IMG/VR virus record: IMGVR_UViG_2731957842_000006
DNA: 37,265 nt
Strand: one strand, 5' to 3'
DNA from: a virus
Taxonomy: Duplodnaviria > Heunggongvirae > Uroviricota > Caudoviricetes
In this document: positions 909 through 32,438 of the stretch, piece by piece
How the letters are laid out: the number at the start of each line of letters is the position of its first letter
Position numbering within the stretch: position 1 is the stretch's first letter
The notes under the pieces: generated by a model
What the model was told of the DNA's origin: nothing
The model's input: only the letters and a program-made list of their open reading frames with translations
Databases searched by the model: none
Translations under genes and position numbers: made by a program

Positions 909-1642
909 TTACTCAACATTAAATGCTCGTATCGCATCTAAATCCTCCAGAGTGTCTAACGCTTCTTTCTTCTCTCGCTGACGGCGATAAATCTCGTCAT
1001 TGCGTTCAACAACAGCCTGCGCCATTGCTGCTGCCAGTTCTTCCGGTTCCGGCATTGACAGCTTCACCTGCTGGTTTTCCGCATCGCCCCATACCATGGT
1101 TTTTCGCGCTGTGTCAGACTTTGATGCCATTACTGCCGGATAAAGACGAGCCATTGAGTCGGGGCCAGCATTCCAGGTGCGACCGTTCCATTCGAACGTG
1201 AACGGCTGCGCTTCCTGTTCTGTGCTCCACACCTCGATTTCCCGCTTTCTGGCATCCTTTCCCACGGCGATAAGTTCTGACGTGACGGTGAATGCAGGGC
1301 TGTCCAGTGGCGCTTTTGTTTTCGTCTCGTCCGTGACGGTTTTGACAGCCTTTGGCGTGGCTGCCAGTTCTTCGCTGTCGTTGTCTGTATCACTACAGAG
1401 TTGCGCCAGACCTTTTTTGTCGTGGAAGCATTGCTTCCCTTCAGATCATCAACTATCCATTGCGCCTCGTCCCTGTGCTGTTTCGCGCTCTGCTGCGCCT
1501 GCACCACAGTTTCCTGTCACCACATCGGCAACTGTGCGCATCACACCTCTGAGGTGTTTACCCGGGATTTCAGAGTTATGTGGCATCCGTACATGGGGAT
1601 GCCTGCGCCATCAATCAGTGCACCTGATATCACTACAGACAT
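909..1642 (-). pseudogene. lambda Stf-like side tail fibre remnant (N-terminal 33 codons, internal deletion with in-frame stops, frame break, divergent C-terminus)
   Basis: Manual translation: MSVVISGALIDGAGIPMYGCHITLKSRVNTSEV then TGA at 1541-1543, resembling the lambda Stf N-terminus; later AQQSAKQHRDEAQ...TTKK / GLAQL...LAATPKAVK...APLDSP resembles the Stf middle region but changes frame at T6 (1413-1418); track ORFs 1130..1507 and 909..1265 are pieces of it. Confidence 0.55.
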
Positions 1643-1665
1643 AGTTTTTCTCGCGATAAATTAAA

Positions 1666-2211
1666 TCAGGAAGAGGCTTCCAGAGAGACGGGCCATTCAA
1701 TGGCGTTATATGAGGTTTTATCAGTGATGGTGCTGAAATCCATCGCCTGCAGCGATTTCGCGTAAATGCGGTACGCTTTCAGCTTCTCCCTGTCGTCGTC
1801 ACTGATTAATCCCAGCAGCAGGTCTTTTTCCCATTCGCTGGTCATGATGCTGACCCGTTGTAACAGGGCATCGCGCTCATCTTCCGCTTTAAGTTTGTAG
1901 TCGAAGACAAATTTATCGTCGCGGTAAAACCAGTAACCAGGCACGGTAATACGGCGGTTAGCGGTAATATCAGGAACTTCAATAACACTGGCGTTACGGG
2001 GTTCAATGCCTGTCACATCCTTACCGACCCAAACCACGCGCCCGTCTCCGGTGTAAACCATTTTTATGGTGTCACTGGCAAAATTTTTCAGCTCTTCATA
2101 CCAGTTTTTGTCATCTTCCGAAAAAAGCCAGGTGATACCATGTTGTTTTGTCATCTGATATTGTTCTGCGGTTTTCGGATTGCCTGCAGTAATATTTTTT
2201 AAATGCAACAT
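1666..2211 (-). CDS. tail fibre assembly protein (Tfa/U-like chaperone)
   Basis: 181-aa ORF immediately downstream of the tail fibre gene; sequence and position typical of Tfa proteins. Confidence 0.75.
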   Translation of the reverse strand: MLHLKNITAGNPKTAEQYQMTKQHGITWLFSEDDKNWYEELKNFASDTIKMVYTGDGRVVWVGKDVTGIEPRNASVIEVPDITANRRITVPGYWFYRDDKFVFDYKLKAEDERDALLQRVSIMTSEWEKDLLLGLISDDDREKLKAYRIYAKSLQAMDFSTITDKTSYNAIEWPVSLEASS

Positions 2212-2213
2212 TG

Positions 2214-3767
2214 TTAAACACTCGCCACGTTATACCAGGTGCCGTTAATCAGTTTCTGAAGCGGTCGGTAATACACGCCGTTGACGTTATCCGCTGAATT
2301 TTTACCAGTATCCGATATCGATATCCCTGACAATCCGTGTCCCGCAGGAGCGTGATATGTCCAGGAGATTACATTGCTGCCAGGTTTGTAATACATTTCG
2401 GAACCATAGCGCACATCCTGCACGCCGCCATTTCGCTGCTGATAACGGGCATCGAAATTTCCATAGTTTGATGGGGTCATCTGTCCGTTTACAGCGAATG
2501 TGATACTGCCATCGGTATTTCTCTGGCTGTAAAAATGCCAGCCGGAATCATCACCAAGCTCTGCAACTACAGGTCGGGATGAATTACCCCATAAATTAAA
2601 CGTTGCGTTTTTCGTGGAGTTGTTGGCGCTGGATAACGTGAATTTTTTAGCATTTCCGGCCTGAATATTTTTTAACGCTATCGCCACACCATTCTGGAAA
2701 CGAAATACATGCTGTCCATTCGCATAAACATCCAGAATGCCGTCGCCGTTTTGTTTTATACCTGTATCGTTATCCCCGAAAGCAATTGAGTTTCCGCCCA
2801 GCGCGTTCTTAACGCCGATACCCAGTGCACCATTGACCTGAGAACCACCGCCAACAGACACTTTATGCGACATGGATATCTCTCCTGTCCGCAAATTAAT
2901 GGTGAGCGGACGCAGGGGACCAATATCTCCATTCTCGCCCTGACCTTCACTAGTAGGGATAAGGTGCAGGCACTCTTCAGAACGGCGAAAAATAAGGCCA
3001 AAAGCCTCGTTAAAAATCCTCAATGCATTAACACCACGTATTTTCAGCTCCCCGGTCATCAAATCACCAGATTTTTTTACATATCGCAGATCAAAATCTG
3101 AATAGATATTGCCGGGGTTTATCACACTGAAATAGCTTTTCTCGCTATCAAGAAGGCAAATCAAAGGAATACCCTTAATGATATCATTCGCTACCAGCTC
3201 GGACTTGTTCCCCTTATAAAGTGGGAACGTACCAAGAACCTTTCCGCCTAGTGTTAGTTGAAGTGTCGCCGCGTTGGTATTGTTCTGAACGGGGAAAACT
3301 ATAATCGGAGTTCGTAGCGTCCAATCTGTACCTCCATTAACAAAAAACGTCGAGGGAAGTTCCAGCGTCAGTGCGTTTGCAGTGCCACCAGTAACACCCG
3401 CAATATAATGACCGCTCTGAAGCTGCGCTATCTGTACGAAATAGTTTTCCGATCCACGCGTGGCAAAGTTAGCCACAACGTCATTAAGGGACCAACCTTT
3501 CGCGGTTGTTCCTTCCTGCCCACGAATGACTTTCAGCACATCACCGCTTACCGATACCAGGTGACAAATCTCAAATGCAGACTCTTTATTATCGGTAAGC
3601 GTAATTTTTGCATAGACGCGTTGCCCGTTCGATTTATTTTCAAAATCGGCAGAAAGCAATTTTGCAAATTTAGCTCCCGTGCCCGGCATCACCGGAATAT
3701 CAGTCTGAATCGTCGTAATATCACCAGCCAGTGCTGAAACAACGTTATTTCCGAATCCAAGAATCAT
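2214..3767 (-). CDS. tail fibre protein (517 aa)
   Basis: Position after the baseplate J-like and I-like genes and before Tfa; Gly/Asn/Ser-rich repetitive C-terminal half; start overlaps the upstream stop. Confidence 0.7.
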   Translation of the reverse strand: MILGFGNNVVSALAGDITTIQTDIPVMPGTGAKFAKLLSADFENKSNGQRVYAKITLTDNKESAFEICHLVSVSGDVLKVIRGQEGTTAKGWSLNDVVANFATRGSENYFVQIAQLQSGHYIAGVTGGTANALTLELPSTFFVNGGTDWTLRTPIIVFPVQNNTNAATLQLTLGGKVLGTFPLYKGNKSELVANDIIKGIPLICLLDSEKSYFSVINPGNIYSDFDLRYVKKSGDLMTGELKIRGVNALRIFNEAFGLIFRRSEECLHLIPTSEGQGENGDIGPLRPLTINLRTGEISMSHKVSVGGGSQVNGALGIGVKNALGGNSIAFGDNDTGIKQNGDGILDVYANGQHVFRFQNGVAIALKNIQAGNAKKFTLSSANNSTKNATFNLWGNSSRPVVAELGDDSGWHFYSQRNTDGSITFAVNGQMTPSNYGNFDARYQQRNGGVQDVRYGSEMYYKPGSNVISWTYHAPAGHGLSGISISDTGKNSADNVNGVYYRPLQKLINGTWYNVASV

Positions 3768-4390
3768 TTTTGAATCACCGTTGTTGCATAGGAATAAATA
3801 AAAGGGAGTTTTACATATTTCTGGTCAATGGCATCTTTCAGAAAATAGCCTATACCATCACCATATTCTGGTATCTGAATAGAAAAAACACTGTCCGATA
3901 CAGTCACGCTCACATCAAAAGTGTGCTGCAACGGCGGGTCTATTCCGTTTTTCCCATGAATGAACCGTGCCACACGGCGCTTTAACCAGTCAATGCAGAA
4001 ATGCGAACCGTCAGCCTTATAAAAATTCCAAGTTAATATTCGCTTGAAATAATCATCCGGAACATACGATGCCTGCCCCGGAACATAATTCCGCATTGCC
4101 GCATAAGGGATTGTATTGTATTCAATGGTATCGTATGCGCCGCGTGCAATAGCCTCCTCGGAAACCTGTAGTAAAGGCCTTTCAACGCCATAAATCCCGA
4201 GAGCAATCCAGTCCAGCAATTGCCCGGTTATTGATTCCGATGTCCAGCATGGCAATGCCAGATTGTTGAGTGAATCGAGGTATTCCTGAGCAATTTCATT
4301 GTATGCATCAAAGAACGCAACAACATTCGGATCATCTCTGTACTGCACAAACGGATAAGCAGGGAGAATTTTTTCAGTCAGATATTGCAT
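3764..4390 (-). CDS. baseplate/tail protein I-like (YmfQ-like)
   Basis: 208-aa ORF between J-like and fibre genes, the conserved position of P2 gpI / Mu gp48-like proteins. Confidence 0.6.
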   Translation of the reverse strand: MQYLTEKILPAYPFVQYRDDPNVVAFFDAYNEIAQEYLDSLNNLALPCWTSESITGQLLDWIALGIYGVERPLLQVSEEAIARGAYDTIEYNTIPYAAMRNYVPGQASYVPDDYFKRILTWNFYKADGSHFCIDWLKRRVARFIHGKNGIDPPLQHTFDVSVTVSDSVFSIQIPEYGDGIGYFLKDAIDQKYVKLPFIYSYATTVIQK

Positions 4391-4395
4391 ACTTG

Positions 4396-5601
4396 TTAAC
4401 TTGAACCTGTGATACCACCGTCGAAAAAATAGGAATAGGTATCGCCATAAACCAGGCTTGTGTCTTTTGCCGGAGGAACAATATGGCCATTAATGCCAAT
4501 GCTCACACTGATTGTTGAGATCAACGTCGCATCAACCAACAATCTGACGGAACTGGTAAAAATATCCTGGATTCGCAGCAGATTTATCGGGTGTCCGACT
4601 TCAATAGAATTGATGTAATCAGCAACGTTTTGCTGCACAGCCATAGCAATACCCGCCGGATCAACATAATCATCAGATACAGTGTTCCAGGTGATTAGCA
4701 CCATGACGTTTTGTGATGACGGGATAACGAACGGTACCTGATAAACATCTGGCGAAACGGTTATTGAAACCGTGCGTTTTTCCACTGCCGCACCAGATGG
4801 ATTGCTAACATCGTTGGTCAGTTTCGAAATATCCGGTACAGATTTGTAAATAGCATAAGCCACATCATACGGATCACCGCCACCAACAACCGCAACCCAT
4901 TTCCCCAGCGACGACTGCCGGAAAGAAATCAGGTTTTCTCGCACACCGCTTACTGATTTGAGCATCGCTTTAAAGCAATCCGGTGTTCCCTGCACACCAA
5001 ACATGCCGGACTCCATGACTTCGGCGCGGTAAGATGCCCACGTTTGCGCCTCCTGACCTGGCATCCCTGCGGTAAGGTTCGTGCATTTTACAGGCTGATC
5101 TTTGGGTACCGATGTAATGACCTGCGTTACGGTTCCTTCCGGTACAGCCCATGAGCCTGACGTTGTGGCCACACAGTAGACTGGCTCAGTCTGCCCGCTT
5201 TCCGGCACCACCGTATCGCGGGAAACTGCATACTGGTAGTTGCCGTCACCGACAACAAATCCTTTAGGGATACCAAACCCCGGCAACGCCTCAAACACCA
5301 CGTATACCGCCGTATTTGTACTTAATCCCTTCTGTGCTCCATAAATGTTTCCGAGTTGCATCAGTAACGGAATATTTGCGCCGTATGGGCTTACGGAGTT
5401 AATAAGGTCCACCCGCGCCTGGTCTATTAATGCCAGCGCCCCGACAGCCGTGCTGGCAAGGTCTGTAATAAGCCCCGCCGGAAGGTTGGCTGTATATCCA
5501 GGTACTTTTTCGGCAACTCTGGTGATAAGATTCGCGAGCAAATCATTGGGTGGCGTAGGCTGCGCCCCCGCACTGGTCATAGTAATTGGTATTTCTGACA
5601 T
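4396..5601 (-). CDS. baseplate J-like protein
   Basis: 401-aa ORF; size and position match baseplate J family (Mu gp47 / P2 gpJ-like) ahead of the I-like and fibre genes. Confidence 0.7.
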   Translation of the reverse strand: MSEIPITMTSAGAQPTPPNDLLANLITRVAEKVPGYTANLPAGLITDLASTAVGALALIDQARVDLINSVSPYGANIPLLMQLGNIYGAQKGLSTNTAVYVVFEALPGFGIPKGFVVGDGNYQYAVSRDTVVPESGQTEPVYCVATTSGSWAVPEGTVTQVITSVPKDQPVKCTNLTAGMPGQEAQTWASYRAEVMESGMFGVQGTPDCFKAMLKSVSGVRENLISFRQSSLGKWVAVVGGGDPYDVAYAIYKSVPDISKLTNDVSNPSGAAVEKRTVSITVSPDVYQVPFVIPSSQNVMVLITWNTVSDDYVDPAGIAMAVQQNVADYINSIEVGHPINLLRIQDIFTSSVRLLVDATLISTISVSIGINGHIVPPAKDTSLVYGDTYSYFFDGGITGSS

Positions 5602-5612
5602 ATTTACTCCAT

Positions 5613-5640
5613 TAAAAAACCCGCTTTCGCGGGTTTTTTA
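5613..5640. terminator. bidirectional intrinsic terminator-like hairpin (AACCCGC-TTTC-GCGGGTT flanked by A6 and T6)
   Basis: Perfect 7-bp GC-rich stem with U-tract on both strands, between the inserted gene stop (5642) and the J-like start (5601). Confidence 0.5.
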
Positions 5641-5641
5641 C

Positions 5642-6801
5642 TTATTCAACCTCTTCTAAACTGCTCACTCTGGACCCTCGGCGGAAATTATCATCATTTT
5701 TAACATACTCATATGAATCCAGAATCAAACCAGATATGCGAAGTATATCTTCCGGATTAGTTATATGTATCCTTTTACCATCCGTATCAAGTCGAGCTCG
5801 TCTTATTTCATTCAACTGAACTTCACTAAGCGAAATAGGTAATGTTATAAATGAAGATTTTTTATCATAAAATCTTAACAGCCATCTATTAGTTTTACCA
5901 TTCAATAGTACACCAAAATATGACTCAGTATCTTTATATTCTATATTATCTTCTGTTTGTATGATTTGTTTTACCCTTTCAAATAGTTCCAATTCTTTGG
6001 CTGTGGTTATTATGTTGGGGTTTTCTTCATCAACAATGGCGTTATTAACTTGTGTATCCGTTGCATCATTTTCTTTAGTTTGCTCTACCGGTTGTGTAGA
6101 TAGCCCGGAAACCACCATTGCGCTAACAGCGCGCTCAACGGCCTGTTTAACTAATGGAGTCACGAACTCAAGAAATCTCTGATTAAGTTGTCTCTCAATA
6201 TTTGAACGACTAGCAACATATCGAACAAACTCCAGATCAACTTCACGAAGACTAGAACTGATTGTTTTAGTAAATGAATTCAAATAAACACTTTCTTCAG
6301 CCAGTGTCCGTAAAGCCTCTGGTTTGAATTTATCATAACGAAAACGAAATAATTGTGTAATATCGGAGTGAGTTAGAGAATCCATTCTTATTTTTAAAAA
6401 CGGCGTTGAATCCATTATGTTTTTTGTTTCAAATCCGTAAAAAAACGCCATTCAACACCATTTGTAATGGCTGATATAGTAACTTCCGGTGTTGAATTAA
6501 AATATCTTGATAGCTGTGGGCAGTGATTATCAATTTGTTCTGAAAACGATTTCGCCTCAATGAACATCACAGGAACATCATGACAAAATAAAGCGTAATC
6601 AACCCGTTCATTAGCCTTAACCCCGGGGAAGTCAGCACTATACTCAGCTTTGACTTTTCTTGGATCATACGGAGTAAAACCAAGAATATCTAGTAATGGC
6701 ATAATGAGTGCTTGTTTTGTCGTTTCTTCAGTTGTACAAAACACCCCCATTTTTGCAACATGCTCTGTGTGTATTTTTAACTTATTTGCAAAATTTTCCA
6801 T
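5642..6801 (-). CDS. HsdR-N-like PD-(D/E)xK nuclease-domain protein with about 265-aa uncharacterised C-terminal region; reading frame broken at a homopolymer (ORFs 6415..6801 and 5642..6451)
   Basis: N-terminal 128 aa carry the restriction-endonuclease-like pattern (PLLDILGF ... VDYALF ... VMFIEAKS ... QLSRYF ... ITNGVEWRFF); GGAGGAG Shine-Dalgarno 8 nt before the ATG at 6801; frame changes at A7 6439-6445 (one extra base would fuse both ORFs); roughly 33-35 percent GC by eye versus about 50 percent in flanks. Confidence 0.5.
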
Positions 6802-6829
6802 GCTTGTCTCCTCCATGGTAACAATATGT

Positions 6830-6859
6830 ATTTTGCAAATCCGAAATAATATATGTCAA
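6830..6859 (-). promoter_or_regulatory. sigma70-like promoter of the inserted nuclease-domain gene
   Basis: Minus strand TTGACA (6854-6859), 18-bp spacer, CAAAAT (6830-6835), about 30 nt upstream of the ATG. Confidence 0.35.
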
Positions 6860-6950
6860 TATGCTCCAGCTTAGAAAATTACTCGCCCCCCTAAAATATC
6901 TCTCTACAGCACTCCAAACCAAGGTAAAAGTTTTATCATAAAACTGTGAT

Positions 6951-7298
6951 TCATACCGGCACCTGCGTCCGGTAACTGGTCCCATTAAAAAACACAACAT
7001 CGATGTTATAGGTGGGGTTATCTGCTCCATCTACCTTTGAAATTGCCAGTGATGCAAAATACCCAGCAAACTGTTGCTGAACCATGTTCACATAGTAGTC
7101 TGGGTAAATCTGCTGCACGATGCACTGCTGTGCAGGAATACCGTAATTCGCGTAAAACGGCGACTCCCCCAATCCCAGCTTTAACGTCTGAATGAGCGTC
7201 GTCAGCCAGCCGTAGGAGAAATCACCGTTGGCGTCAGATTCTACTGCAACCCATTTTTTGTTGCCGTTCGCGTCGGTGACGCGGCCCCATGTTCTCAT
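6951..7298 (-). CDS. putative baseplate component (115 aa)
   Basis: ORF in the baseplate block between the spike-like gene and the J-like gene; family not assignable by eye. Confidence 0.4.
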   Translation of the reverse strand: MRTWGRVTDANGNKKWVAVESDANGDFSYGWLTTLIQTLKLGLGESPFYANYGIPAQQCIVQQIYPDYYVNMVQQQFAGYFASLAISKVDGADNPTYNIDVVFFNGTSYRTQVPV

Positions 7299-7498
7299 CG
7301 TGCCCCCATCACTTTAACTAACTCTGTCAGTACTGGTGAAAAGGCAAATGCTAAAGCTACGAGTGCAGCGGTGTAATACATGCGTCGTAAGGTATTGCTT
7401 TTTGCCACTAATTTTAAGGCTTTCACAATCCAGTCTCCTCCGCTAAAATTAATCACGGAAGACCTCCAAACATACGTAATCATCCCTTGCGTATTCAA
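7295..7498 (-). CDS. small hypothetical protein (67 aa or shorter), hydrophobic C-terminal half
   Basis: ORF whose stop overlaps the downstream start; weak support only. Confidence 0.25.
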   Translation of the reverse strand: MNTQGMITYVWRSSVINFSGGDWIVKALKLVAKSNTLRRMYYTAALVALAFAFSPVLTELVKVMGAR

Positions 7499-7511
7499 GG
7501 TGAGAAACAGA

Positions 7512-7539
7512 ACCCCCCGACTGGGCCAACAGTCGGGGG
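7512..7539. terminator. strong GC hairpin (11-bp stem CCCCCCGACTG / CAGTCGGGGGG, 6-nt loop) inside the baseplate operon
   Basis: Perfect inverted repeat followed by T-rich sequence on both strands, between the 7581..8294 and 7295..7498 ORFs. Confidence 0.3.
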
Positions 7540-7580
7540 GTTCGTTTTATGGTTAGAATTTAAAGTGAAATGAACCGGTA

Positions 7581-8294
7581 TTAACCAGGATTTGGTTTCT
7601 TCGACGTAATCGTGCTGCTGCCGCTTTGAACACCAGTCACATCGTGGCTGTGGCCGCTGACGCTCACGCCGTTGATAACTGCATCCATCTCGACATTAAG
7701 AGGACCAATCAGCGAAGCGGTTGTATCCTTCATCTGGGCTTTGTCCTGGACGATCGGTCCGTTGAGGTGAATTTTCCCGTTCAGGAAAATATCTTCGGCC
7801 TCGAGGTAAACAGCTTTCGACTTTTGCCTGATTTCTTCCAGAGCCACCATTACCGAGCTACTGCCGTCCTCTGTTTTGAGGATCGCGCCATCCGGACCGT
7901 ACAAAACGATTTTTTGCGGATCTTCGTCGGACCACTCCTTGTTTGCCAGTGGCACGAAAAACAGGGGAGTGAGCGACATCGAGTAAGAAAGCGTTGCCAT
8001 ACCGGTTCCCAATCCGGACACACCGCGCAGTGATACATCAGCGGCAATTGTTACTCCTCGATCGCCCGGCTGTATCGGGTAACGGATATACGGGAATGTG
8101 GCGACAGGGATTGTTATCTGCGGGAAGTTGATCCCCTCCGGCAGCATATCAAACTGAACTGTCACTATTTGCCCGCAGATATCGACAACATGGCAGGGCA
8201 ATTCGCGGCCTTTAAGCTCGGCTTGCTGGTTACCAGAACTGGTCATCATCTCCGACAGTGTTCGGAGAAACGGTAATTTTTGAGCGTTTGACAT
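7581..8294 (-). CDS. putative baseplate spike/assembly protein (237 aa)
   Basis: Position in the baseplate block; size compatible with gpV/Mu gp45-like proteins; not verified. Confidence 0.4.
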   Translation of the reverse strand: MSNAQKLPFLRTLSEMMTSSGNQQAELKGRELPCHVVDICGQIVTVQFDMLPEGINFPQITIPVATFPYIRYPIQPGDRGVTIAADVSLRGVSGLGTGMATLSYSMSLTPLFFVPLANKEWSDEDPQKIVLYGPDGAILKTEDGSSSVMVALEEIRQKSKAVYLEAEDIFLNGKIHLNGPIVQDKAQMKDTTASLIGPLNVEMDAVINGVSVSGHSHDVTGVQSGSSTITSKKPNPG

Positions 8295-9301
8295 TACACC
8301 CTCGCCCAGTTCTCAGCATATGCCTCAAATACCGTCACCCAGGCATCGCCATCGGCTGTCAGATACGAACCAATGTGTCTGACTGATTTCACAAGAAATT
8401 TCCCGGTGAACGTGGTCGAATTTTTTGCGATAACGCTGGGTACCGTTGTATTAGCCATCACAATCGACGCAGCGCCAGAATATAGCCCCTCCGGCAGTTT
8501 AACCACATCACCACATCTGATATCGCCTCTCATAGGGCATTTGAAACTGACGGTAAACGGCGCTATCCATGTCGGCTGCCCGACCAGTTCATGGGCATGA
8601 ATTGTTTTTGGCTCACCCCACTTTGCCGATGCGTTATCGTAGATTCGTATTCTGTCGGAAAGAATACTGATGGCGATTCCGCTATACCTTTCATTACGCA
8701 TCATCGCAATAGAGGCGTTTTTTACGACCATAGCCAGCGAACCAATCTCCGTATATTTGCCCGTCCACGGCTCTGGCAAAACCAGGTTGTCGCTGACTGT
8801 GCAATCAATAAGTTTATTGGGATATGCTTTTTGCAAAGCGCGGACTAAAACATCGCCCACCCTTTCCCCTGCTTCCCCCTGCCCCTCAATTGAAAAAGGT
8901 TTACCGTCATCGGTTTTGCGTATGCTTGGATTTATTACCAGGTTTAAAGTCTGGTTCGTGCCGATCCAGTTGGCATAGGCCAGATAAATTTCACCATAGA
9001 TTACCTCCCCCTGTTGATCCTTATTTGCCAGTGGTAACCCCTGAACAAAGCCTGCTTTCATACGTACCAGACAACCCTGCAAACTTACGCTTTGCTTCAG
9101 CATGTCAATTGGTAATCCATAGATCGTCAGCATCGTACCCGAACAGACTACATCCAGGCCGGTTACTTCAAAGTCAAATTCAACATGCAACCCACATCCT
9201 GGTGTTTCATTGGTATCAAAAGGTCCAATGGGTTTTCCATTGCTATCCACTGGCGGCTTGCCTGTTTTAGGATTAATAATTTCCAGTCGGTAATAACGCA
9301 T
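8294..9301 (-). CDS. putative baseplate hub protein (335 aa)
   Basis: Translationally coupled ORF in the baseplate block after the tape measure gene. Confidence 0.4.
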   Translation of the reverse strand: MRYYRLEIINPKTGKPPVDSNGKPIGPFDTNETPGCGLHVEFDFEVTGLDVVCSGTMLTIYGLPIDMLKQSVSLQGCLVRMKAGFVQGLPLANKDQQGEVIYGEIYLAYANWIGTNQTLNLVINPSIRKTDDGKPFSIEGQGEAGERVGDVLVRALQKAYPNKLIDCTVSDNLVLPEPWTGKYTEIGSLAMVVKNASIAMMRNERYSGIAISILSDRIRIYDNASAKWGEPKTIHAHELVGQPTWIAPFTVSFKCPMRGDIRCGDVVKLPEGLYSGAASIVMANTTVPSVIAKNSTTFTGKFLVKSVRHIGSYLTADGDAWVTVFEAYAENWARV

Positions 9302-9567
9302 TACGAAACCTCAAACTGATTCGTACTTTTGCGAAAAACAAGTTTCCCCGGTGAGCAAGGCAGCGCCAGATTGATGTCGTAACTGTCAGGTGACGCGATC
9401 AAAGGCATGTATACAATCACGTCGCCTGAACTGTCTTTCAGTTCCAGGTAGTAACGATTTGCATACAGATTAAACGGAACGCGGGCGAATGTTTCATATT
9501 CTCCGATTCTGGCCGTGAACTGAAATGGTCCTCGCCCGTCAGGTTTGAAAGGAATTAACGTTGTCAT
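9301..9567 (-). CDS. putative tail/baseplate protein (88 aa)
   Basis: Coupled ORF (stop/start overlap) within the tail operon. Confidence 0.35.
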   Translation of the reverse strand: MTTLIPFKPDGRGPFQFTARIGEYETFARVPFNLYANRYYLELKDSSGDVIVYMPLIASPDSYDINLALPCSPGKLVFRKSTNQFEVS

Positions 9568-10232
9568 AAGCCAAAACCAAACTCCTGCACGACCTGGTTC
9601 TTAATACCTGACCACGATAGCGCCCCGTCTGACGGCATCCCTTTATCAAATTTATCCAGAACGCTCGCCAGCGTTTTTACCGTTTGTTCGACAGACGACA
9701 ATGGTTGCTCAAACTCAATCTGCCAGGTGTGCTGAACCTGCTTGTTCTGCTCAGAGAAACCGGATGTATCGATAAACGACCGCATCAGACAGCGCGTGTA
9801 GATGAAAGATGGCGTCATTACGGTGTAACAACCGCCATACTGGTTATGCATATCGAGCGCCATTTTCAGCGCCGTGAATGTCATCCCCTTAGTGATGTAG
9901 CCACCGTCCTCCGTTGATGCCGGACGGATCATCTGCATGACTACCCGGTTAGGCTTCTTGACGGTCGCATTCGCTGCCGTTACCTGGTTATAGAAATTCA
10001 GGTTGCAAATATCCTGCTGAACCAACGTTGTCCCCGCCATCGGGGTAAATGCCGCCATCGAGCGTGTACGAATCTCGCCATGCAGCAGACCGTTCACAAT
10101 GCTTAGGCCTTCGGTCAAAACAGCAATCGGCATCACCCCGCCGGGAATTTTCGACGCTATGCCATCAACTAAAAGAATGGGCGATACTTCAAACGCCAGT
10201 TTGAAAGCTTGTCCAAAGTAATTAAGTGACAT
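9564..10232 (-). CDS. putative tail protein (222 aa)
   Basis: ORF directly downstream of the tape measure gene, coupled to the next ORF. Confidence 0.35.
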   Translation of the reverse strand: MSLNYFGQAFKLAFEVSPILLVDGIASKIPGGVMPIAVLTEGLSIVNGLLHGEIRTRSMAAFTPMAGTTLVQQDICNLNFYNQVTAANATVKKPNRVVMQMIRPASTEDGGYITKGMTFTALKMALDMHNQYGGCYTVMTPSFIYTRCLMRSFIDTSGFSEQNKQVQHTWQIEFEQPLSSVEQTVKTLASVLDKFDKGMPSDGALSWSGIKNQVVQEFGFGL

Positions 10233-10235
10233 GGT

Positions 10236-12314
10236 TTACCCCGGTATTTGTTGCATTCCGGCGAGTTGTGCCAGTATGTCGGAACCTGGTTTTTGTTGAA
10301 CGTCGAGCCTGATTACCTGAGAAGTATTATTTGGTGAATATACGTTTCCCCGGTTCATTGCCAGCGCCCGCATCACATCATCGCCACTTACTGCACGAGC
10401 GGCGTCCCCATTTTCATGGTTAATAATGCCCTGAATTAGCTTTCTCATTATCTCAAAATTAGAACCATCGATTTTCTCCTTAACACCTAATCCGGTGTAC
10501 TGAGAGAGATAGCTTTTATAGGACGATGTGTTATTTCCATCAGATGAAGGGGCATAAATATCAATAATCTGATCAATCGTATTTTTGCCGCGTTTCAGGT
10601 ATAGCATTACCTGCCGATCTAAGGCAGCAATGCCTTCCAGCATCGTCGGGAAGCTGGCAAAACGGGCATTTGGCCCCGATTCCAGGGTAGCCCCTTTTTG
10701 TCCTGCGAAATTAAGATTTCCGGGATTGTTATTCCTGATCCCTCTGGATAAATATGCAGATCTGTTTACTTGATTTGAAAATCCCTGCAATCCTCCAGGC
10801 CAGACCTTACCCGGATTGTTTTTTTGCCACTCCTGCACTTCGTTAAAATAATCAAAGTTGAAACGCCCCTCCAGCCCTTTCATTTCCTCACTGGTGGTAG
10901 GTGTGTCATTTGTAGGAATAGCCAATCCAGCTACTGTTCCGGCTGTAGCCCCAAGAAGACTTCCACCAACAACACGGGCGGCAACTCCGGTCGTTGTGGC
11001 TGCCACAGCACCAACTCTCGATGGTCCAGCAAGTACTGCGGCCCCAAAAAGCCAGGGATGTTCAACCGCAAAACCAACAAACCCGCTAAGTGCCTTAACA
11101 ACCTTTGCAACATTTTCGGCAAAATTATTCAGGTCGTTATTAAAATCCGGGCCATTTACATACTTACCAAGTTTATCCAGACCTGTTTCAACATCAGTCA
11201 AAATTCTTTTAAAGTTCTCACCGTTAAGGAAATTTAGACCAGCATTCTTTACACCATTAGATATTCTAATTAGCTGTACAGAGTTACCCGACATTACCCC
11301 CTGAAATCCGCTGGTAAGTTGATCCCAGTTATTTTCTAAGTTGCTGGTAAGATTCTGATACTGGCTTGTATGTCCAGAGGTGAGCAACGAGTCATTCTGA
11401 GAAGCTCGCGATAAAAACTCTTTGTTGAGTTCAGGTATTTTGTCCTGATATTTGACTAACTGGTTAGCAATACCAAAATTTACCCATCCAAGGCCACGAC
11501 CTCTGAGCATGCTCTGAGTAAGTCCAGTTCCCTCATACTCCTTTGCAAGAGCAGCAACTCTTTCTAACAATACAGGAAGATTTTCTGCTGCCCCTTTTTT
11601 AGGATTTATCCCTAATCCAATTAGCCCGTTGTAGGCAGGATGCTGAGTGTCATTTTGCGCGGCTGCCAGTGTATTGAGCAAATTACCAACACCGGAAAAA
11701 TAAGGCGAATAAGTGCTTTCTGCCGCCTTTAACTCTCCTGGCGTTGCCTGCAATTCATCAGCATTTTTCTGTTTCTCTACAACATTACGAGCCATCATGC
11801 CAAAGCCAAACGGCCCGGCAACACCCATAACCGCAAGTTTTGTCCCCCACGATACGGTGGTTTTAAACAGGTTGTTTAATCTCGAAGTCGTCGTCCGTAG
11901 CGTAGAATTGATCTGCTTGTAAGTTTTCAGCGTCTGTTTGGCGTTTTTCCCCAGCCCGCTGAGGTACTTATCAAACATCGTTTCGCCGCGACCTTTATAG
12001 TTGCTCACCAGCGAATCAGGTGTTTTCCCGCTGCCAACAAAGCGCCATTTTTCATCCCTTAAACGTCCATCAGTGGAAGCAGCCAGAACTGGCGCGGGTG
12101 AAGATGGTTTCCTGGGAGCCTGATTGGCTTCTCCGCCTGTGGTTGTCTGCCAAGAGCCACCTCCCGGACCGGTATTTGAAGGTATTTTAAGCGGCGTACC
12201 GGCAGGGCCAATCATCAGTCCGTTGCGATACTTTTCAAATATCGCCTCAAGCCGCCTGAGGTGTTCTTCATTAACATCCAGCGTCAGAACTGGCATCTGG
12301 TTACCAGCCATCAC
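10236..12314 (-). CDS. putative tail tape measure protein (692 aa)
   Basis: Largest tail-operon ORF, after the chaperone; Gly/Ala-rich hydrophobic stretches (AVLAGPSRVGAVAATTTGVAARVVGGSLLGATAGTVAGLA) typical of tape measure proteins; C-terminal region with RGIRNNNPGNL motif. Confidence 0.55.
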   Translation of the reverse strand: MMAGNQMPVLTLDVNEEHLRRLEAIFEKYRNGLMIGPAGTPLKIPSNTGPGGGSWQTTTGGEANQAPRKPSSPAPVLAASTDGRLRDEKWRFVGSGKTPDSLVSNYKGRGETMFDKYLSGLGKNAKQTLKTYKQINSTLRTTTSRLNNLFKTTVSWGTKLAVMGVAGPFGFGMMARNVVEKQKNADELQATPGELKAAESTYSPYFSGVGNLLNTLAAAQNDTQHPAYNGLIGLGINPKKGAAENLPVLLERVAALAKEYEGTGLTQSMLRGRGLGWVNFGIANQLVKYQDKIPELNKEFLSRASQNDSLLTSGHTSQYQNLTSNLENNWDQLTSGFQGVMSGNSVQLIRISNGVKNAGLNFLNGENFKRILTDVETGLDKLGKYVNGPDFNNDLNNFAENVAKVVKALSGFVGFAVEHPWLFGAAVLAGPSRVGAVAATTTGVAARVVGGSLLGATAGTVAGLAIPTNDTPTTSEEMKGLEGRFNFDYFNEVQEWQKNNPGKVWPGGLQGFSNQVNRSAYLSRGIRNNNPGNLNFAGQKGATLESGPNARFASFPTMLEGIAALDRQVMLYLKRGKNTIDQIIDIYAPSSDGNNTSSYKSYLSQYTGLGVKEKIDGSNFEIMRKLIQGIINHENGDAARAVSGDDVMRALAMNRGNVYSPNNTSQVIRLDVQQKPGSDILAQLAGMQQIPG

Positions 12315-13005
12315 AATACTCCTGCGGGATTTTTGAATTTGAGCAGCTCACGAAACTGAGCTGCTGTTTTTACATTTAGGCCGGAATCTGCACAGATGTC
12401 TCTGAATCCGGCTCCGGCTGAGTAGTCGAGGATGTCGCTGATGACGTGTTCGCCGTCGCGCCAGAACTGGCGGCTGATTTCAATGTCGGCAATGAAGCGA
12501 TCCATTCCGTAAGATTCAATAACGAGCATTGAGTGCTCCATACTCCATTGACCACATCCATAGTCCCCTTCGCCTGCTCCGGTGAATTTATCGACGAGAC
12601 GCATGTAAAAAAAATGAGCTCACCCGCCACTTCATCCAAATCAATGATTTCACGCTCCAGCGCCATATCGAGAGGGATTGTGTCGTAGCCTTTACCCTCC
12701 ACTGGGTAAACAAGATTTGCCAGGCGAATGACCTCATTAACAAGTGTATTACGGACCCCTTTATCACCTTCCCAGATATTAGAATCACGCGAGATCCGCT
12801 CCAGCATCAAAAAAGCGATACGCGGACCCGCAACGACGCCAAGACCTTCTGAAAAAATGGCAGAAAAAGTTTTACTCAGAATGAAGAAATGCTCTTTAAA
12901 CACCTCTTTGCTAATCGGCGTGGCATGGATCCAGCCATTATCCTTTTCTGTCCGGACAGGAATAATCAGGTTTAAATTTCGCGCGATTTTCATACCAGAT
13001 CCCAC
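12311..13005 (-). CDS. tail assembly chaperone-position protein read in two frames (ORFs 12376..13005 and 12311..12604), joined at a U8 tract
   Basis: Canonical position between tube and tape measure; frame switch (-1) exactly at plus-strand A8 12607-12614; zero-frame continuation is low-complexity, -1 frame continuation reads as protein. Confidence 0.4.
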
Positions 13006-13433
13006 ATTTCAGAGTTGATGTAATACGTACCAGTAATGGTGATGGCCACACCCGGCTCGCCCCCGGCGAAGGTCATATCCTGCACGTTGGTGATCGCCGT
13101 GTTATAGATATCGAAGTCACCGAACACCGTGCTGTCGCTATACACTTTTGCGTCGCCGATCGTGGCATTCTTTTCCCATTGCGTCTTGAATTGTTTTCCC
13201 AGCGCCTGGCTACGCAGCAGATGAACACGCGCCTGTAAAATCATGTATGGCTGCGGCGACTGCACGGCTCCCGTCATAGCGGGTAAAAACTCCGTGATAT
13301 TGCCCTGAAAGGACAATTCGACGCCTTCTTTTGCCAGAAAAGAGGCGGACACATTCAGTTCAGAATGGGAGGTAAATTTAACGCTGGCGCGAACCCGGTT
13401 AAGGGTGCCAACGGGGATCATTGGATTAGGCAC
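12990..13433 (-). CDS. putative tail tube protein (147 aa)
   Basis: Small ORF immediately after the sheath-sized gene and before the chaperone. Confidence 0.5.
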   Translation of the reverse strand: MPNPMIPVGTLNRVRASVKFTSHSELNVSASFLAKEGVELSFQGNITEFLPAMTGAVQSPQPYMILQARVHLLRSQALGKQFKTQWEKNATIGDAKVYSDSTVFGDFDIYNTAITNVQDMTFAGGEPGVAITITGTYYINSEMWDLV

Positions 13434-13444
13434 GGTTCAGTCCC

Positions 13445-17117: not shown

Positions 17118-17309
17118 TTATGCGTATTCCCGGCGTTTGTCCGGCGACTCCTCCACCAGCTCCTGCCATGTCGCGGTAAATTCACGTCGCCACTGGTAAA
17201 ACGTGGTTTTATAGTCATCAGTTATGATGTCCGGGTAATCATTTTTCAGCGACTGATAAAATTCCTCGTTCCAGGCGATGTACTGCACCAGGCGTTCGAA
17301 ATAATCCAT
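17118..17309 (-). CDS. small hypothetical protein (63 aa)
   Basis: ATG overlaps the terminase TGA (TGATG coupling); no similarity to a terminase nuclease domain. Confidence 0.3.
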   Translation of the reverse strand: MDYFERLVQYIAWNEEFYQSLKNDYPDIITDDYKTTFYQWRREFTATWQELVEESPDKRREYA

Positions 17310-19124: not shown

Positions 19125-19127
19125 TAG

Positions 19128-22794: not shown

Positions 22795-22860
22795 ATGAAA
22801 AAGGCCCGCCGGAGCGAGCCATAAAAAACTGAATAAAAAAAACCGCCAGGTGCGGCGGTT
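22795..22860 (-). repeat. copy A of a roughly 66-bp direct repeat carrying tandem hairpins and U-tracts (terminator 22831-22860)
   Basis: Near-identical to 23475-23537; minus strand AACCGCC-GCACCT-GGCGGTT followed by T9. Confidence 0.6.
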
Positions 22861-23112: not shown

Positions 23113-23187
<75 letters not shown>

Positions 23188-23537: not shown

Positions 23538-23902
23538 TAAAACGATAAAAGGACACAATATTATAATGATTATTGGGTTTGGGGCATCGGGTGCCTCCCG
23601 AAGTATTCCACTTTACGTGGATACTGTGGTTTCCCGCTAAACCGACTCTATAAACCACCCTCGCACTGAGGAACGCCCCAATTCATGTTTTCCGACACAG
23701 AGATGGCGCATCACTGGTTACTCCACGCTAAATCCTGCTTCCTTTCGTGGGCAATGCGCCATTTCTGTGTCATAAAAAATACAGCACTGAGTCTGTAACC
23801 GATCTCCATTACAGAATGAGGGACGATAAAGGTATTAAAGAGATCTGTTCCTCACGAAAACCGCCAGTGCTGTAAAAACTTGTCCAAAAAACAATGAAGT
23901 TG

Positions 23903-24491: not shown

Positions 24492-24568
24492 TGGTCCGCC
24501 ACCGAGGACTCGAACCTCGCACAATCAACTTAGAAGGTTGATGCTCTATCCCGATGAGCTAGTGGCGG
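24492..24568 (-). tRNA. tRNA-Arg (anticodon UCU, reads AGA)
   Basis: Hand-folded 77-nt cloverleaf: acceptor CCGCCAC/GTGGCGG, anticodon arm TCAAC-CTTCTAA-GTTGA, T-arm CGAGG-TTCGAGT-CCTCG, encoded CCA. Confidence 0.85.
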
Positions 24569-24570
24569 AA

Positions 24571-24646
24571 TGGTGGCCCTTGCTGGATTTGAACCAGCGA
24601 CCTGGCGATTATGAGTCGCTCGCTCTCACCACTGAGCTAAAGGGCC
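24571..24646 (-). tRNA. tRNA with CAU anticodon, Ile2 (lysidine-type, reads AUA)-like; could alternatively be Met
   Basis: 76-nt cloverleaf GGCCCTT ... anticodon loop CTCATAA ... T-arm GCTGG-TTCAAAT-CCAGC ... AAGGGCC-A-CCA; resembles ileX-type tRNAs; 2 nt from the tRNA-Arg. Confidence 0.8.
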
Positions 24647-25870: not shown

Positions 25871-26118
25871 CTGGTGAAGTTCATGCGATTAATTCGCCAC
25901 GCGATACAGCTTTGCGAAGCGTATCGGAATTGAAGCAGTTTATGCGTAAGAAATCAAGCCATTTTTTGAGCAAATGATTCTCGCATGGGAATGTATAGCG
26001 CACACTCAGCAACAGCCAACCAATTAGCAATTCGCTTTGACCAGTTGTATATGCGCCATTGCTGTCTCCAATGGCGCTGTAGGTTGCCAGTTGTTCAGGC
26101 TGGCTTACGAATTATAAC

Positions 26119-26291: not shown

Positions 26292-26412
26292 TCAACAGAA
26301 TCCTTCCAGATAAATAGCACCCCCCTGTTCGGGGTCCATCCCTCTTCTCCCTGCGCGCTACTTAAGTATTTTTGATTCTATTCCGGCATCGTCCATAACT
26401 TCAAACGTATTG

Positions 26413-27663: not shown

Positions 27664-27793
27664 TTTTCATTACCGCCCTTTCAGGCGGCCTCCTGATGTT
27701 CTGAGGGTGCAGAAATCCCTCCGGTTAAGGATTTAATAAAATTCACTTCTGATTTAAATTTTCAGTATTTTGTTGTCAGGTGGTTTATCGCCT

Positions 27794-28771: not shown

Positions 28772-28786
28772 AAGCGCCTCCGGCAA

Positions 28787-29549
28787 TCACTTTTCCGATA
28801 CAACACAGCGGGAAGAATCAGTAATCTGGCGAACAATATCCCGGTGCTTGTTCAACTCCCGCAGCGCGGCGCAGACACGCTCCCACTTCTGGACATGGCT
28901 TTTCGCCCGACGCAGTTTGCGGTTTGCCAGATGCAGCGATGGCAAAATCAAATCATCCGCCCGCGTTTCGGTAAACGATGGCAACGACTGCACAATGTCC
29001 GCTACAGTATCTGTTTTAATTTCTTCCTGTGTTGCAGCCTCCTGTACTGGTAACGCAACACCTGCGGGCTGAGGAAAAGCCTTACCATCAGTTTCCGCTA
29101 CCGATGCTGCTTTCGGCTCTGCTGGTAAATTATCGCCCGGTATGCAGTAACGAAATTTACCGCCCTGATTTACGCGAATCAGACGACCTTTGCTGATTGC
29201 CATTGCCAGCGTTGAAGCCACTTTGCGTGATGTGGTACCAAACAATGTAGCCAGTTCATCCGCCGTTTGTGGTCCGCGTTGTTCAATCGTCGCGGTTAAA
29301 TCGCACTCTGAGATTTTCGCTACTGTCGCCGTGCTGGTTTCTTCCGGCTGTTCTTCTGGCGCTGGCTGTTCCTGCTGAACGTTGTTATCAGCCACACGCC
29401 AGGTGTATGCGCTTTTATCAACGAAGCCAGCCTTTTTTCAGTTCCCACAGCTCGTTCAGTACTTCTTCACGACTGATATCAAGTCGCGCAGCCAGCTCTA
29501 CCGACGTGGCTTTTCCCATCGCTTTCAGTGCGTCAAAAACAGTCTCCAT
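28787..29549 (-). pseudogene. winged-HTH protein in the Rac ydaW position, split by a frame break (43-codon N-terminal ORF 29418..29549 plus 202-codon ORF 28787..29395)
   Basis: N-terminus [37 protein letters not shown] reads as a wHTH; frame changes at T6 29433-29438 and a stop follows; T5 or T8 would give one continuous ORF of about 255 aa. Confidence 0.5.
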
Positions 29550-29569
29550 AAATTTCCTCCCGGTAAAAA

Positions 29570-30316: not shown

Positions 30317-30322
30317 GGTCTG

Positions 30323-31111: not shown

Positions 31112-31188
31112 TTGTTTTCACCTTGTAACGCTCGCAGCGTTACATTTAACTGATACCGAACAAAACAATCCGGCACGATTAATTTCAA

Positions 31189-31611
31189 TCAATGCACTAC
31201 GACAGAATCACCGGGCGACCCACCACCGCTGAAATGTGCTTTCCGGTAAACGGCCTGGACTGCATCATCATGCGCATCAATTGCCGTACTCAACGCTTCC
31301 TGCGCCGCCAGTAATGCACGGCGTTCCAGGGTATCGAAGATGCAGAGTCGGTGACGCAGCTCGCGCGGAAGAATTGCCAGAACCGCAGGGATCAGTGTCT
31401 GAATTTTTTCCCTTTGCGCTTTCGTTTCACCTTTTAACCAACGGTGATAGATGTTCTGCTGATTATTCCAGTCCTTGCCTGGTACCAGGGGCAATTCGCC
31501 GCCCCCCTGGCGCAGATATTCTTCAGTAATTGCATTGGCTACCCATGCCTGCCCTTTTTCAGCGGCCAGGGCTAACAGCACTGATTCGATGTGCTCATGC
31601 CTGATTTTCAT
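31189..31611 (-). CDS. YdaT-like / CII-position regulatory protein (140 aa)
   Basis: AGGAG Shine-Dalgarno; sits between the Cro-like and replication genes as Rac ydaT does; size matches. Confidence 0.5.
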   Translation of the reverse strand: MKIRHEHIESVLLALAAEKGQAWVANAITEEYLRQGGGELPLVPGKDWNNQQNIYHRWLKGETKAQREKIQTLIPAVLAILPRELRHRLCIFDTLERRALLAAQEALSTAIDAHDDAVQAVYRKAHFSGGGSPGDSVVVH

Positions 31612-31870
31612 GAATCAACTCCTGTGCATTTTGTGTGTTAGCCTTACATCCAACAGGTAAACCATCGGTCGGATTCGGGTAGATATCAGGCCGGAGTTCA
31701 TGAGGTGTAACCTCGAAATTCGTAGCCTCTGCGATACGCAATACCTTTTCAGGGCTTAACTGACTACGTCCAGTAGCAACGAGGCTAATCATTGATTGCG
31801 AACAACCAGCCAGCGCGGCCAAACAAGACTGTCGTACACGATTTTTTTTCAAATATTCATCTAATGTCAT
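31595..31870 (-). CDS. Cro-like HTH regulator (about 91 aa)
   Basis: ATG at 31870 with AAGGTGA Shine-Dalgarno (track ORF begins at an upstream TTG); HTH segment QSCLAALAGCSQSMISLVATGRSQ; divergent from the repressor gene. Confidence 0.55.
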   Translation of the reverse strand: MTLDEYLKKNRVRQSCLAALAGCSQSMISLVATGRSQLSPEKVLRIAEATNFEVTPHELRPDIYPNPTDGLPVGCKANTQNAQELIHENQA

Positions 31871-31974
31871 AAGGGTCACCTTAGTAATGTTCGCCAAAAT
31901 ATTAACTATACTAATTTAAATGATCAATACTTATATCAGTTTGAGATTATGAGCTGTGTTCATAAGATGGTGGT
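31871..31974. promoter_or_regulatory. immunity-region divergent promoter/operator interval between the Cro-like and repressor genes
   Basis: About 100-bp AT-rich intergenic region between divergently transcribed HTH regulator genes. Confidence 0.35.
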
Positions 31975-32438
31975 ATGAGAAGAAAACGCGAAGAAATCGC
32001 ATCGCCAGAAGCTACGCAGCGTCTACGCGGAATCTGGGATGCAAAAAAAGAGAGCTCAAATTGACTCAGGAGCTTGCTGCCGAGCTAATGGGCTTTGAGA
32101 CGCAATCTACGGTTAGCCACTATCTCAACGGAAAGGCTCCACTTAACACTGATGCGGCATTAAAATTCGCAGTATTGCTAAGAGTTAAGCCTGAAGACTT
32201 GAGGCCTGATTTAGCTGATCTGATGAATTACGTCCGTTCCTCTGGAACTTATGACGAAAGTTTCGAAGGCGAAGGGTGGCGGATGGTTAACAAGCAACAA
32301 GCTGATTTACTGGATCTTTTTGATATCCTCCCCGAATCAGAAAAAGCAAAACTAATCGAAAGGCTTAAAGGCCAGAATGAACTCTACAAAGAAGCGTTTG
32401 AAAATATGCTGGCAGCTCAGAAACGCATAAAGAAATAG
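31956..32438 (+). CDS. racR: CI/RacR-like HTH repressor (about 155-160 aa); N-terminus ambiguous
   Basis: HTH region LKLTQELAAELMGFETQSTVSHYLNG; main frame has no ATG before the HTH (track start is a GTG at 31956); an ATG at 31975 opens a second frame (MRRKREEIASPEATQRLRGIWDAKK) that joins the main frame if A7 at 32043-32049 were A8. Confidence 0.55.
   Translation: MFIRWWYEKKTRRNRIARSYAASTRNLGCKKRELKLTQELAAELMGFETQSTVSHYLNGKAPLNTDAALKFAVLLRVKPEDLRPDLADLMNYVRSSGTYDESFEGEGWRMVNKQQADLLDLFDILPESEKAKLIERLKGQNELYKEAFENMLAAQKRIKK

Follow-up and report, generated by a model that had tools for sequence, protein, structure and literature searches.

Roche 454 pyrosequencing reads the length of a homopolymer as light intensity, so that A/T runs are liable to be miscounted. 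Assembly errors of this platform concentrate in A/T homopolymers and increase with run length (Luo et al. 2012, PMC3277595). A frame change of a different kind, the G-T frameshift of tail chaperone genes, is conserved widely among long-tailed phages, and the shifts of lambda (G/GT) and P2 (E/E+E') are ribosomal where they have been characterised (Levin 1993; Xu 2004; reviewed in PMC5009743). Cryptic prophages at the Rac site of E. coli also carry decayed pseudogenes, and within the RacR/YdaS-YdaT module of the K-12 Rac prophage the RacR repressor is essential (PMC5700373, PMC5700377).

We analyzed a prophage sequence of 37,265 nucleotides (the window), for which the original prediction listed five reading-frame breaks, each falling on a homopolymer and each due either to an assembly miscall or to a real slippage mutation. 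All five runs are present, and because runs of six or more bases make up only 1.5% of the window the coincidence of breaks with runs is not chance; however, the causes differ and one run was misassigned. Both proposed explanations occur, but neither explains all five sites. Comparison of orthologous loci, which had been suggested as a check, showed that the genes at 29433 and 32043 are intact in relatives, that the sequences at 1413 and 12607 are common to relatives, and that the change in the nuclease gene, located here at 6420, recurs elsewhere. It is likely that four different causes, all of them ordinary, account for the breaks: 454 miscalls, an old shared lesion, a recurrent allele, and a programmed frameshift. 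They involve no new biology. The sites resemble described 454 consensus errors in being one-base changes in A/T runs of 5–8 bases that give artificial frameshifts in a low-coverage 454/Newbler assembly, and differ from them in that two are common to other assemblies and one is recurrent in independent samples.

Source assembly and its private run-length changes

Comparison of bases 1–15601 of the window with contig JTFE01000023.1 of Escherichia coli VL2874 showed 100% identity, and JTFE00000000 is the VL2874 assembly of Blum et al. (PMC4725725). VL2874 was sequenced on the Roche 454 GS FLX Titanium and assembled with Newbler 2.6, with 280–336 thousand reads of 230–291 nt (PMC4556653). The contig identity and the published platform together establish a pyrosequencing origin, and from the read numbers we estimate a coverage of approximately 15×. 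The prophage is defective: deletions have removed the capsid and portal genes and a portion of the terminase gene. The nearest relatives used for comparison were RM11911 and VG48B2 (both at 29433, RM11911 alone at 32043), supplemented by long contigs from other strains that were found via the neighbouring tail fibre. In addition, the Newbler contig was compared with the Logan re-assembly of SRR2070767, which we take to be the reads of VL2874 itself. The features needed here are as follows.

4424–4429, minus strand: A6 on the plus strand (coding T6) in the baseplate J gene, five bases in every comparator; probable 454 miscall
28787–29549, minus strand: DUF1627 gene, wHTH-like at the N terminus, 253 aa if unbroken, here ORFs of 43 aa and 202 aa
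29433–29438, minus strand: frame break in the DUF1627 gene, T6 on the plus strand, coding A6 versus A5 in RM11911 and VG48B2, between ELKK and AGF; probable 454 miscall
31975–32438, plus strand: HTH_3 repressor gene, positional analogue of RacR, 154 aa when intact, divergent from ydaS/ydaT-like genes
32043–32049, plus strand: frame break in the repressor gene, A7 versus A8 in RM11911, between DAKK and RELK; probable 454 miscall

In a three-genome comparison covering bases 1–30473, four run-length changes of one base each are private to the window, which has no substitution of its own; the private changes of RM11911 are two in run length and seven substitutions, and those of VG48B2 are none in run length and one substitution. 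That the branch leading to this assembly is richer in run-length changes than in substitutions points to 454 miscalls. One-base changes in A/T runs that are unseen in near-identical, independently sequenced genomes were found at 4424, 29433, 32043, and 22835; the sequences at 1413 and 12607 are shared with such genomes, and 6420 is ambiguous, its allele being present in other samples.

The frame changes predicted at T6 29433–29438 and A7 32043–32049 were borne out by the orthologues, which have T5 and A8 at these positions and encode unbroken proteins, of 253 aa for DUF1627 and 154 aa for the HTH protein. Intact but otherwise identical proteins are encoded on 163 contigs for DUF1627 and 317 contigs for the repressor. 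The native frame of the repressor reaches a stop after 29 codons in the window, and the shifted frame gives a 160-aa ORF with an intact HTH whose product was found only in SRR2070767. Given the 454/Newbler source, the absence of the changes from relatives, and the tally of private changes, the run lengths at 4424, 29433, and 32043 are most likely 454 consensus miscalls, a reading reached at every private site by comparing sequences. The consensus would have gained one base at 4424–4429 and at 29433–29438 and lost one at 32043–32049.

The run at 4424–4429 is a sixth change that was overlooked previously. It alters baseplate J past residue 392, shortening the protein from 408 to 401 aa; the A6 is unique among all fragments compared, and the 401-aa protein occurs in VL2874 only.

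It is improbable that VL2874 has a decaying, defective prophage in which the changes at 4424, 6420, 29433, and 32043 are all real replication-slippage mutations that inactivate genes. The loss of capsid, portal, and part of the terminase implies relaxed selection and makes such slippage plausible, but VG48B2, which shares the large deletions, retains the genes at these four sites intact. Mutations of this kind do occur: real frameshifts have accumulated in the Stf tail-fibre remnant described below, independent samples contain the A6 allele of the nuclease gene, and the DUF1627 +1 allele is also present on four unrelated contigs; against this stand the four private run-length changes with zero private substitutions, a platform best known for exactly such errors, and the fact that two assemblers of apparently the same reads differ at the run at 32518. 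A real frameshift at 32043 would also be argued against by the toxicity expected from loss of a RacR-like repressor. This expectation rests on an analogy with K-12 (PMC5700373, PMC5700377), whose module likewise has an HTH repressor divergent beside ydaS/ydaT-like genes; the window encodes another allele of this repressor, and the essentiality refers to K-12. Because the 160-aa ORF keeps its HTH, viability is compatible with a real change at this site.

Of the two uniform explanations, inactivating mutation at all five sites is unlikely, in view of the platform and of how private run-length changes compare in number with private substitutions, and assembly error at all five is rejected on the grounds of the identity of sites 1413 and 12607 in independent assemblies and the recurrence of the nuclease allele.

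The outcome is mainly one of quality control: apparent pseudogenes of this 454 draft should not pass for prophage decay without resequencing, a caution that extends to the DUF1627 gene, the repressor, and the altered end of baseplate J.

Run length also varies between near-identical sequences at non-coding runs of eight bases at 22835, 24249, and 32518 and at a coding run of eight at 34076, all overlooked previously. The non-coding runs are probably 454 miscalls as well. Three of these runs are listed here.

22835–22842, no strand assigned: intergenic A8, A9 in both nearest relatives
32518–32525, no strand assigned: A8 in the Newbler assembly versus A7 in the Logan re-assembly of SRR2070767
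34076–34083, plus strand: A8 in an intact 107-aa ORF; RM11911 has A7 and is annotated as "frameshifted", so that the lesion is in the relative

The difference between the Logan and Newbler assemblies at 32518 is an indirect hint that the reads disagree on the length of this run.

Tail-fibre remnant and nuclease gene

Two frame breaks interrupt the remnant of a Rac-type Stf tail-fibre gene.

1413–1418, minus strand: frame break at T6 (coding-strand A6), after ...GSNASTTKK and before GLAQLCSDTDNDSEELAATPKAVK
1541–1546 (approximately 1544), minus strand: second frame break, GTGGTG to GTGTG, not a homopolymer, causing a stop after residue 33

When the intact E. coli W tail fibre was compared by tblastn, residues 209–242 matched one minus frame to position 1412 and residues 243–286 matched another from 1411, so that two minus frames do meet at the T6 run; at this point the unbroken gene of E. 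coli W is one base longer. The expectation that a one-base change would repair the gene fails, because the remnant also contains the second frame break and two large internal deletions. Eight other assemblies (RM11911, VG48B2, and six more) are identical at 1413, and the break is therefore real, an old pseudogene lesion: the loss of one base has been inherited in a badly decayed fibre remnant that these other lesions have already ruined. The multiple frameshifts and deletions of the Stf remnant and the loss of structural genes resemble the pseudogene decay of cryptic Rac-site prophages in E. coli; a difference is that sharing, and with it reality, is demonstrated for the lesions of Stf and the large deletions only.

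The second gene encodes an HsdR-N-type nuclease.

5642–6801, minus strand: HsdR-N-type nuclease gene inserted among baseplate genes, 386 aa if intact
6420–6425, minus strand: the run that breaks the gene, T6 on the plus strand, coding A6 versus A7 in intact orthologues, between LKQK and NIMD
6439–6445, minus strand: A7, coding T7 that encodes R-F-F; the run named in the original prediction, not the lesion

The gene is split as predicted, giving an N-terminal ORF of 128 aa and a second ORF of 257 aa joined by a TAATG overlap, but the A7 at 6439–6445 to which the break was assigned does not differ in length from that of intact orthologues; the lesion is the T6 at 6420–6425, 14 nt away, where the orthologues have T7. 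The coding-A6 allele was found in nine other samples, and the exact 128-aa product is encoded on 11 contigs in three sequence backgrounds, compared with at least 1,000 contigs for the fused A7 form. In each compared fragment this allele is the sole one-base run-length difference, except in SRR2070769, which has one more. Other ±1 alleles occur at 7-base runs of the same gene (on three, three, and one contigs), and none was found for the seven variants that we looked up at runs of 5–6 bases. Because ±1 alleles exist at other 7-base runs, finding the allele in other public datasets does not by itself establish it as genuine. Its occurrence in nine other samples and three backgrounds nevertheless makes recurrent, genuine slippage the probable reading, in VL2874 too, although a miscall there is possible. 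A change from coding A7 to A6 would then break the nuclease in a naturally recurrent manner, giving the overlapping pair of ORFs.

Both run lengths are present in several natural lineages, as they would be at a phase-variable locus, and the A7 tract might be a selected hypermutable switch, of the on/off or fused/split type, that repeatedly turns the 386-aa protein of a cargo gene into a translationally coupled 128 + 257 aa pair across prophage lineages. We regard this as very unlikely. The tidy stop/start overlap of the split form, the three backgrounds of the A6 allele, and its excess over the ±1 alleles at other 7-base runs (11 contigs versus three, three, and one) are compatible with a switch, but the fused form outnumbers the split form by at least 1,000 contigs to 11, contingency loci tend to have tracts of more than seven bases, and no PADLOC defence family matched the nuclease to hint at a defence role. 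The ±1 alleles at other 7-base runs would fit general run instability or sequencing noise.

A predicted programmed frameshift in the tail assembly chaperone gene

The remaining site lies in the tail module.

12376–12993, minus strand: 0-frame ORF of a G-like chaperone, 205 aa, PHROG 11810, between tube-like and tape-measure genes
12607–12614, minus strand: predicted −1 frameshift site, coding T8, T_TTT_TTT followed by A
12311–12613, minus strand: −1 extension of approximately 100 codons, PHROG 14324, whose TGA overlaps the tape-measure ATG

Two overlapping frames meet at the A8 at 12607–12614, as had been reported, but the 205-aa 0-frame ORF is uninterrupted and the run is identical in all relatives. 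Error and inactivating mutation, the two choices offered for it, both fail here; the site combines a conserved slippery sequence with an ORF in the −1 frame. The tube and tape-measure genes flank the chaperone gene, tube and sheath being assigned by position only, and the next gene downstream encodes a 691-aa tape-measure/lytic transglycosylase protein. A run of T7 or T8 is found at the same codon, approximately 125, in the E. coli W prophage, Rac-SA53, the Klebsiella phages RothC and Chronis, and the Pantoea phage PdC23. In all six sequences, including the window, T_TTT_TTT is in phase and is accompanied by a −1 ORF of 100–120 codons that ends at or near the tape-measure start. The predicted GT-like fusion of approximately 227 aa was covered to 95% by tblastn in two frames, at 32–34% identity, in the Klebsiella and Pantoea phages. 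Because the site is kept at this level of protein identity, we infer that T8 is a programmed −1 ribosomal frameshift site of the G/GT type rather than damage. Expression would then resemble that of lambda G/GT: most ribosomes would yield the 205-aa G-like protein, and a minority would slip on T_TTT_TTT and read on to the tape-measure start, producing the fusion.

The locus shares with lambda G/GT and P2 E/E+E' its place immediately before the tape-measure gene, a slippery heptamer that is in phase, a startless −1 ORF that extends to the tape-measure start, and a layout kept despite low identity. It differs in that the 0-frame, instead of ending shortly past the slip site, runs on for 77 codons to give a G protein of 205 aa, and in lacking a sequence match to known chaperone families. 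The chaperone, tube-like, sheath-like, and tape-measure proteins gave nothing above family thresholds against Pfam, the chaperone having no match at E ≤ 1, and PHROG 11810 and PHROG 14324 are both of unknown function and offer no likeness to known chaperones.

Transcriptional slippage can occur on runs of eight T or A (reviewed in PMC5009743), and RNA polymerase adding one U at T8 would give the same −1 product as a ribosomal shift. Folding of 77 nt downstream of T8 in four lineages gave no support for a stimulatory RNA structure (z from +0.9 to −1.2), which is in keeping with polymerase slippage, but PdC23 has only T7, the run keeps the exact X_XXY_YYZ phase in every lineage, and the chaperone shifts of lambda and P2 are ribosomal (PMC5009743). 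We therefore think a transcriptional origin of the shift improbable.

As a by-product for annotation, the site would add a conserved frameshift to the tail module that is common to Rac-SA53, the E. coli W prophage, RothC, Chronis, and PdC23. In the records inspected for this phage group it is unannotated, and the −1 ORF is either omitted or given as a separate hypothetical gene.

Homopolymer runs and the source assembly

The original prediction placed five frame breaks on homopolymer runs and attributed them either to assembly miscalls or to real slippage mutations. All five runs are present in the window, and because runs of 6 bases or more occupy 1.5% of it, the coincidence of breaks with runs is not chance. 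Comparison with orthologues separated the sites: the run at 1413 is shared with relatives, that at 6439 is unchanged, that at 12607 is invariant, and those at 29433 and 32043 differ from relatives. The observation was partly right, but the nuclease gene is broken at a different run and the T8 run of the tail chaperone gene marks no damage; the interpretation was also partly right, in that miscall and slippage each fit some sites but neither fits the T8 run, a predicted conserved programmed frameshift. A mixed explanation across the sites is likely, and we find nothing here that is new biology.

The window is an E. coli prophage that occupies the Rac attachment site and is laid out as follows:

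One side: intR, xisR, recET, kilR, a RacR-like repressor gene, and ydaS/T/V-like genes
Next: lysis genes, three tRNA genes, and a contractile-tail-type module (minus strand)
End of the tail module: Stf remnant, adjoining uspF and ompN

Contig JTFE01000023.1 of E. coli VL2874 is 100% identical to window positions 1–15601. JTFE00000000 is the accession of the VL2874 genome described by Blum et al. 2015 (PMC4725725). Newbler 2.6 was used to assemble it from 280–336 thousand Roche 454 GS FLX Titanium reads of 230–291 nt (PMC4556653), and we estimate its coverage at ~15x. RM11911 and VG48B2 are the nearest complete genomes; once three block deletions are set aside, nearly all their differences from the window are one-base run-length changes. 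The three blocks, present in RM11911 and missing from the window (at 17128–17343 and 26036–26038), comprise 3975 bp with the major capsid and scaffold genes plus a portion of the portal gene, 1606 bp with the remaining portal sequence and the beginning of the terminase large-subunit gene, and 1320 bp with the DUF1133, DUF1364, and DUF1367 genes; the prophage is therefore defective. VG48B2 has the 3975-bp and 1320-bp deletions too; the 1606-bp one, whose junction shows an 8-bp overlap, occurs in the window alone.

The tRNA genes, all on the minus strand (23115–23187, 24492–24568, and 24571–24646), are Gly(tcc), Arg(tct), and one with a CAT anticodon, which is Met according to ARAGORN and Ile according to PGAP in the relatives. 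PP818812.1, named 'Actinobacillus phage vB_Apl-pPE4', is 94% identical to the prophage across 68% of the window's first 25 kb, an odd match for a phage whose host is one of the Pasteurellaceae.

The Stf remnant and the tail chaperone

When the intact E. coli W Stf (1046 aa) was used as a reference, its residues 209–242 and 243–286 fell in two separate minus frames that join precisely at T6 1413–1418, where the intact gene has one extra base. This sequence is identical in RM11911, VG48B2, and six more assemblies, and because all of them carry the lesion it is almost certainly real, shared, and inherited. A one-base repair at this run would not restore the gene as had been proposed: there is a second frame break at ~1544 (window 1541–1546), where GTGGTG has become GTGTG outside any homopolymer, and the remnant lacks residues 48–208 and 287–1046. 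A 33-aa 'tail fiber N-terminal' ORF is the product of the 1541–1546 break.

In the chaperone gene, A8 12607–12614 is T8 on the coding strand and is identical in all close relatives. The 0-frame ORF (...ELIFFTCV...) runs on to 205 aa, the −1 frame (...FFYMRLVDKF...) spans ~100 codons, and the TGA of the −1 ORF overlaps the ATG of a 691-aa tape-measure gene. A frameshifted product would be ~227 aa, with its junction reading ...ELIFFYMR.... A fused query gave two-frame matches, covering 95% of the query at 32–34% identity, in Pantoea phage PdC23 and in Klebsiella phages RothC, RothD, and Chronis. Among the examined sequences the slippery run lies at codon ~125 in X_XXY_YYZ phase, as T8 or, in PdC23, as T7, and is followed by a −1 ORF of 100–120 codons that reaches the tape-measure gene. 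The arrangement in the window corresponds to the classic G/GT layout (PMC5009743). With the run invariant and the arrangement kept in distant phages, we reject frame damage here, and the sequence predicts with high confidence that 12607–12614 is a programmed frameshift site. The ORFs had no match in Pfam, the PHROGs of both are of unknown function, and no RNA structure was found downstream of T8; gene position and conservation are thus the basis for assigning the chaperone role.

The predicted frameshift of this tail module is without annotation in the records inspected. Those of RothC, PdC23, Chronis, and Rac-SA53 have the 0-frame ORF as hypothetical, and the −1 ORF is missing or a small fragment of it is called as a separate ORF; PHROG 14324 treats the −1 ORF as a stand-alone family.

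The split nuclease gene

The gene for an HsdR-N-type endonuclease of 386 aa (PHROG 4225, PF04313/PF13588) is indeed split in the window, but not at A7 6439–6445, which encodes R-F-F and is the same in intact orthologues. The true difference is T6 at 6420–6425 versus T7 in orthologues, by which CAA AAA AAC becomes CAA AAA ACA TAA on the coding strand, with stop and start overlapping as TAATG. The exact truncated product of 128 aa is carried by 11 contigs, which represent nine or more samples and three backgrounds (A, the window and SRR9276294; B, three samples; C, four samples), and the allele is the sole one-base run-length difference in each fragment compared except that of SRR2070769, which has one further private change. 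As a control, look-ups of other alleles of the gene returned both ±1 variants of its second 7-base run and a +1 variant of the 6420–6425 run (3, 3, and 1 contigs), and none of seven variants at nuclease runs of 5–6 bases. In our reading the run is naturally unstable, and we lean toward the 6420–6425 allele being real in VL2874, a 454 miscall being the less likely option.

The further change in SRR2070769, an SRA run that carries a related prophage and is adjacent in accession number to SRR2070767, is T5 for T6 at the equivalent of window 3883; it shortens a 208-aa baseplate-region protein to 179 aa, and two further samples with this background lack it. The nuclease gene (window 5642–6801) sits in a cargo slot flanked by baseplate J and the following tail gene; in E. 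coli W this slot (locus L005, 9177–10131) holds different genes, a hypothetical gene and an antirepressor fragment, both on the opposite strand.

Run-length changes private to the window

The breaks predicted at T6 29433–29438 and A7 32043–32049 were borne out by the relatives. The former run is T5 in RM11911 and VG48B2, and the DUF1627 protein of the window is cut at ELKK|AGF; the latter is A8 in RM11911, and the HTH repressor of the window ends after 29 codons. A sixth change, absent from the original prediction, is A6 at 4424–4429 versus A5 in every comparator, which alters baseplate J beyond residue 392. In contig look-ups, intact DUF1627 protein and intact repressor were found in 163 and 317 contigs, respectively, the 401-aa baseplate J in VL2874 only, and the shifted repressor product in SRR2070767 only. 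Contigs of SRR2070767 match the window exactly save for one run and are therefore taken as reads of the same strain; that run, at 32518, is A7 in these contigs versus A8 by Newbler, a disagreement that reveals run-length uncertainty in the data.

Over window 1–30473, where the three genomes are comparable, private changes (those assigned to one lineage alone) number four in run length and no substitutions for the window, two and seven for RM11911, and none and one for VG48B2. Every private change of the window lies in an A/T run of 5–9 bases, and A/T run-length errors are the pattern recorded for 454 assemblies (PMC3277595). The changes at 4424, 29433, and 32043 are thus probably 454 miscalls, judging from sequence comparison, and caution is warranted with apparent pseudogenes in the VL2874 draft. 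Real decay is a plausible alternative because the prophage is defective, and the DUF1627 +1 allele occurs in four unrelated contigs. By likeness to RacR (PMC5700373, PMC5700377), one would expect genuine loss of the repressor to be harmful, although the HTH is still encoded in the shifted frame, which weakens this argument.

RM11911 has one-base run-length differences of its own, at 23794 and 37544 of its locus L001 (window 16093 and 24249) and 13399 of its locus L002 (window 34076), two of which give rise to genes that PGAP labels 'frameshifted' and that are intact in the window; run-length noise or instability therefore extends beyond the 454 assembly. Four of the seven length-8 runs in the window vary among near-identical sequences (22835, 24249, 32518, and 34076), yet the chaperone run at 12607, also of length 8, is invariant. 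The sole substitution relative to VG48B2 (26319–26325) borders a C run, with A + C6 in the window and RM11911 and C8 in VG48B2.
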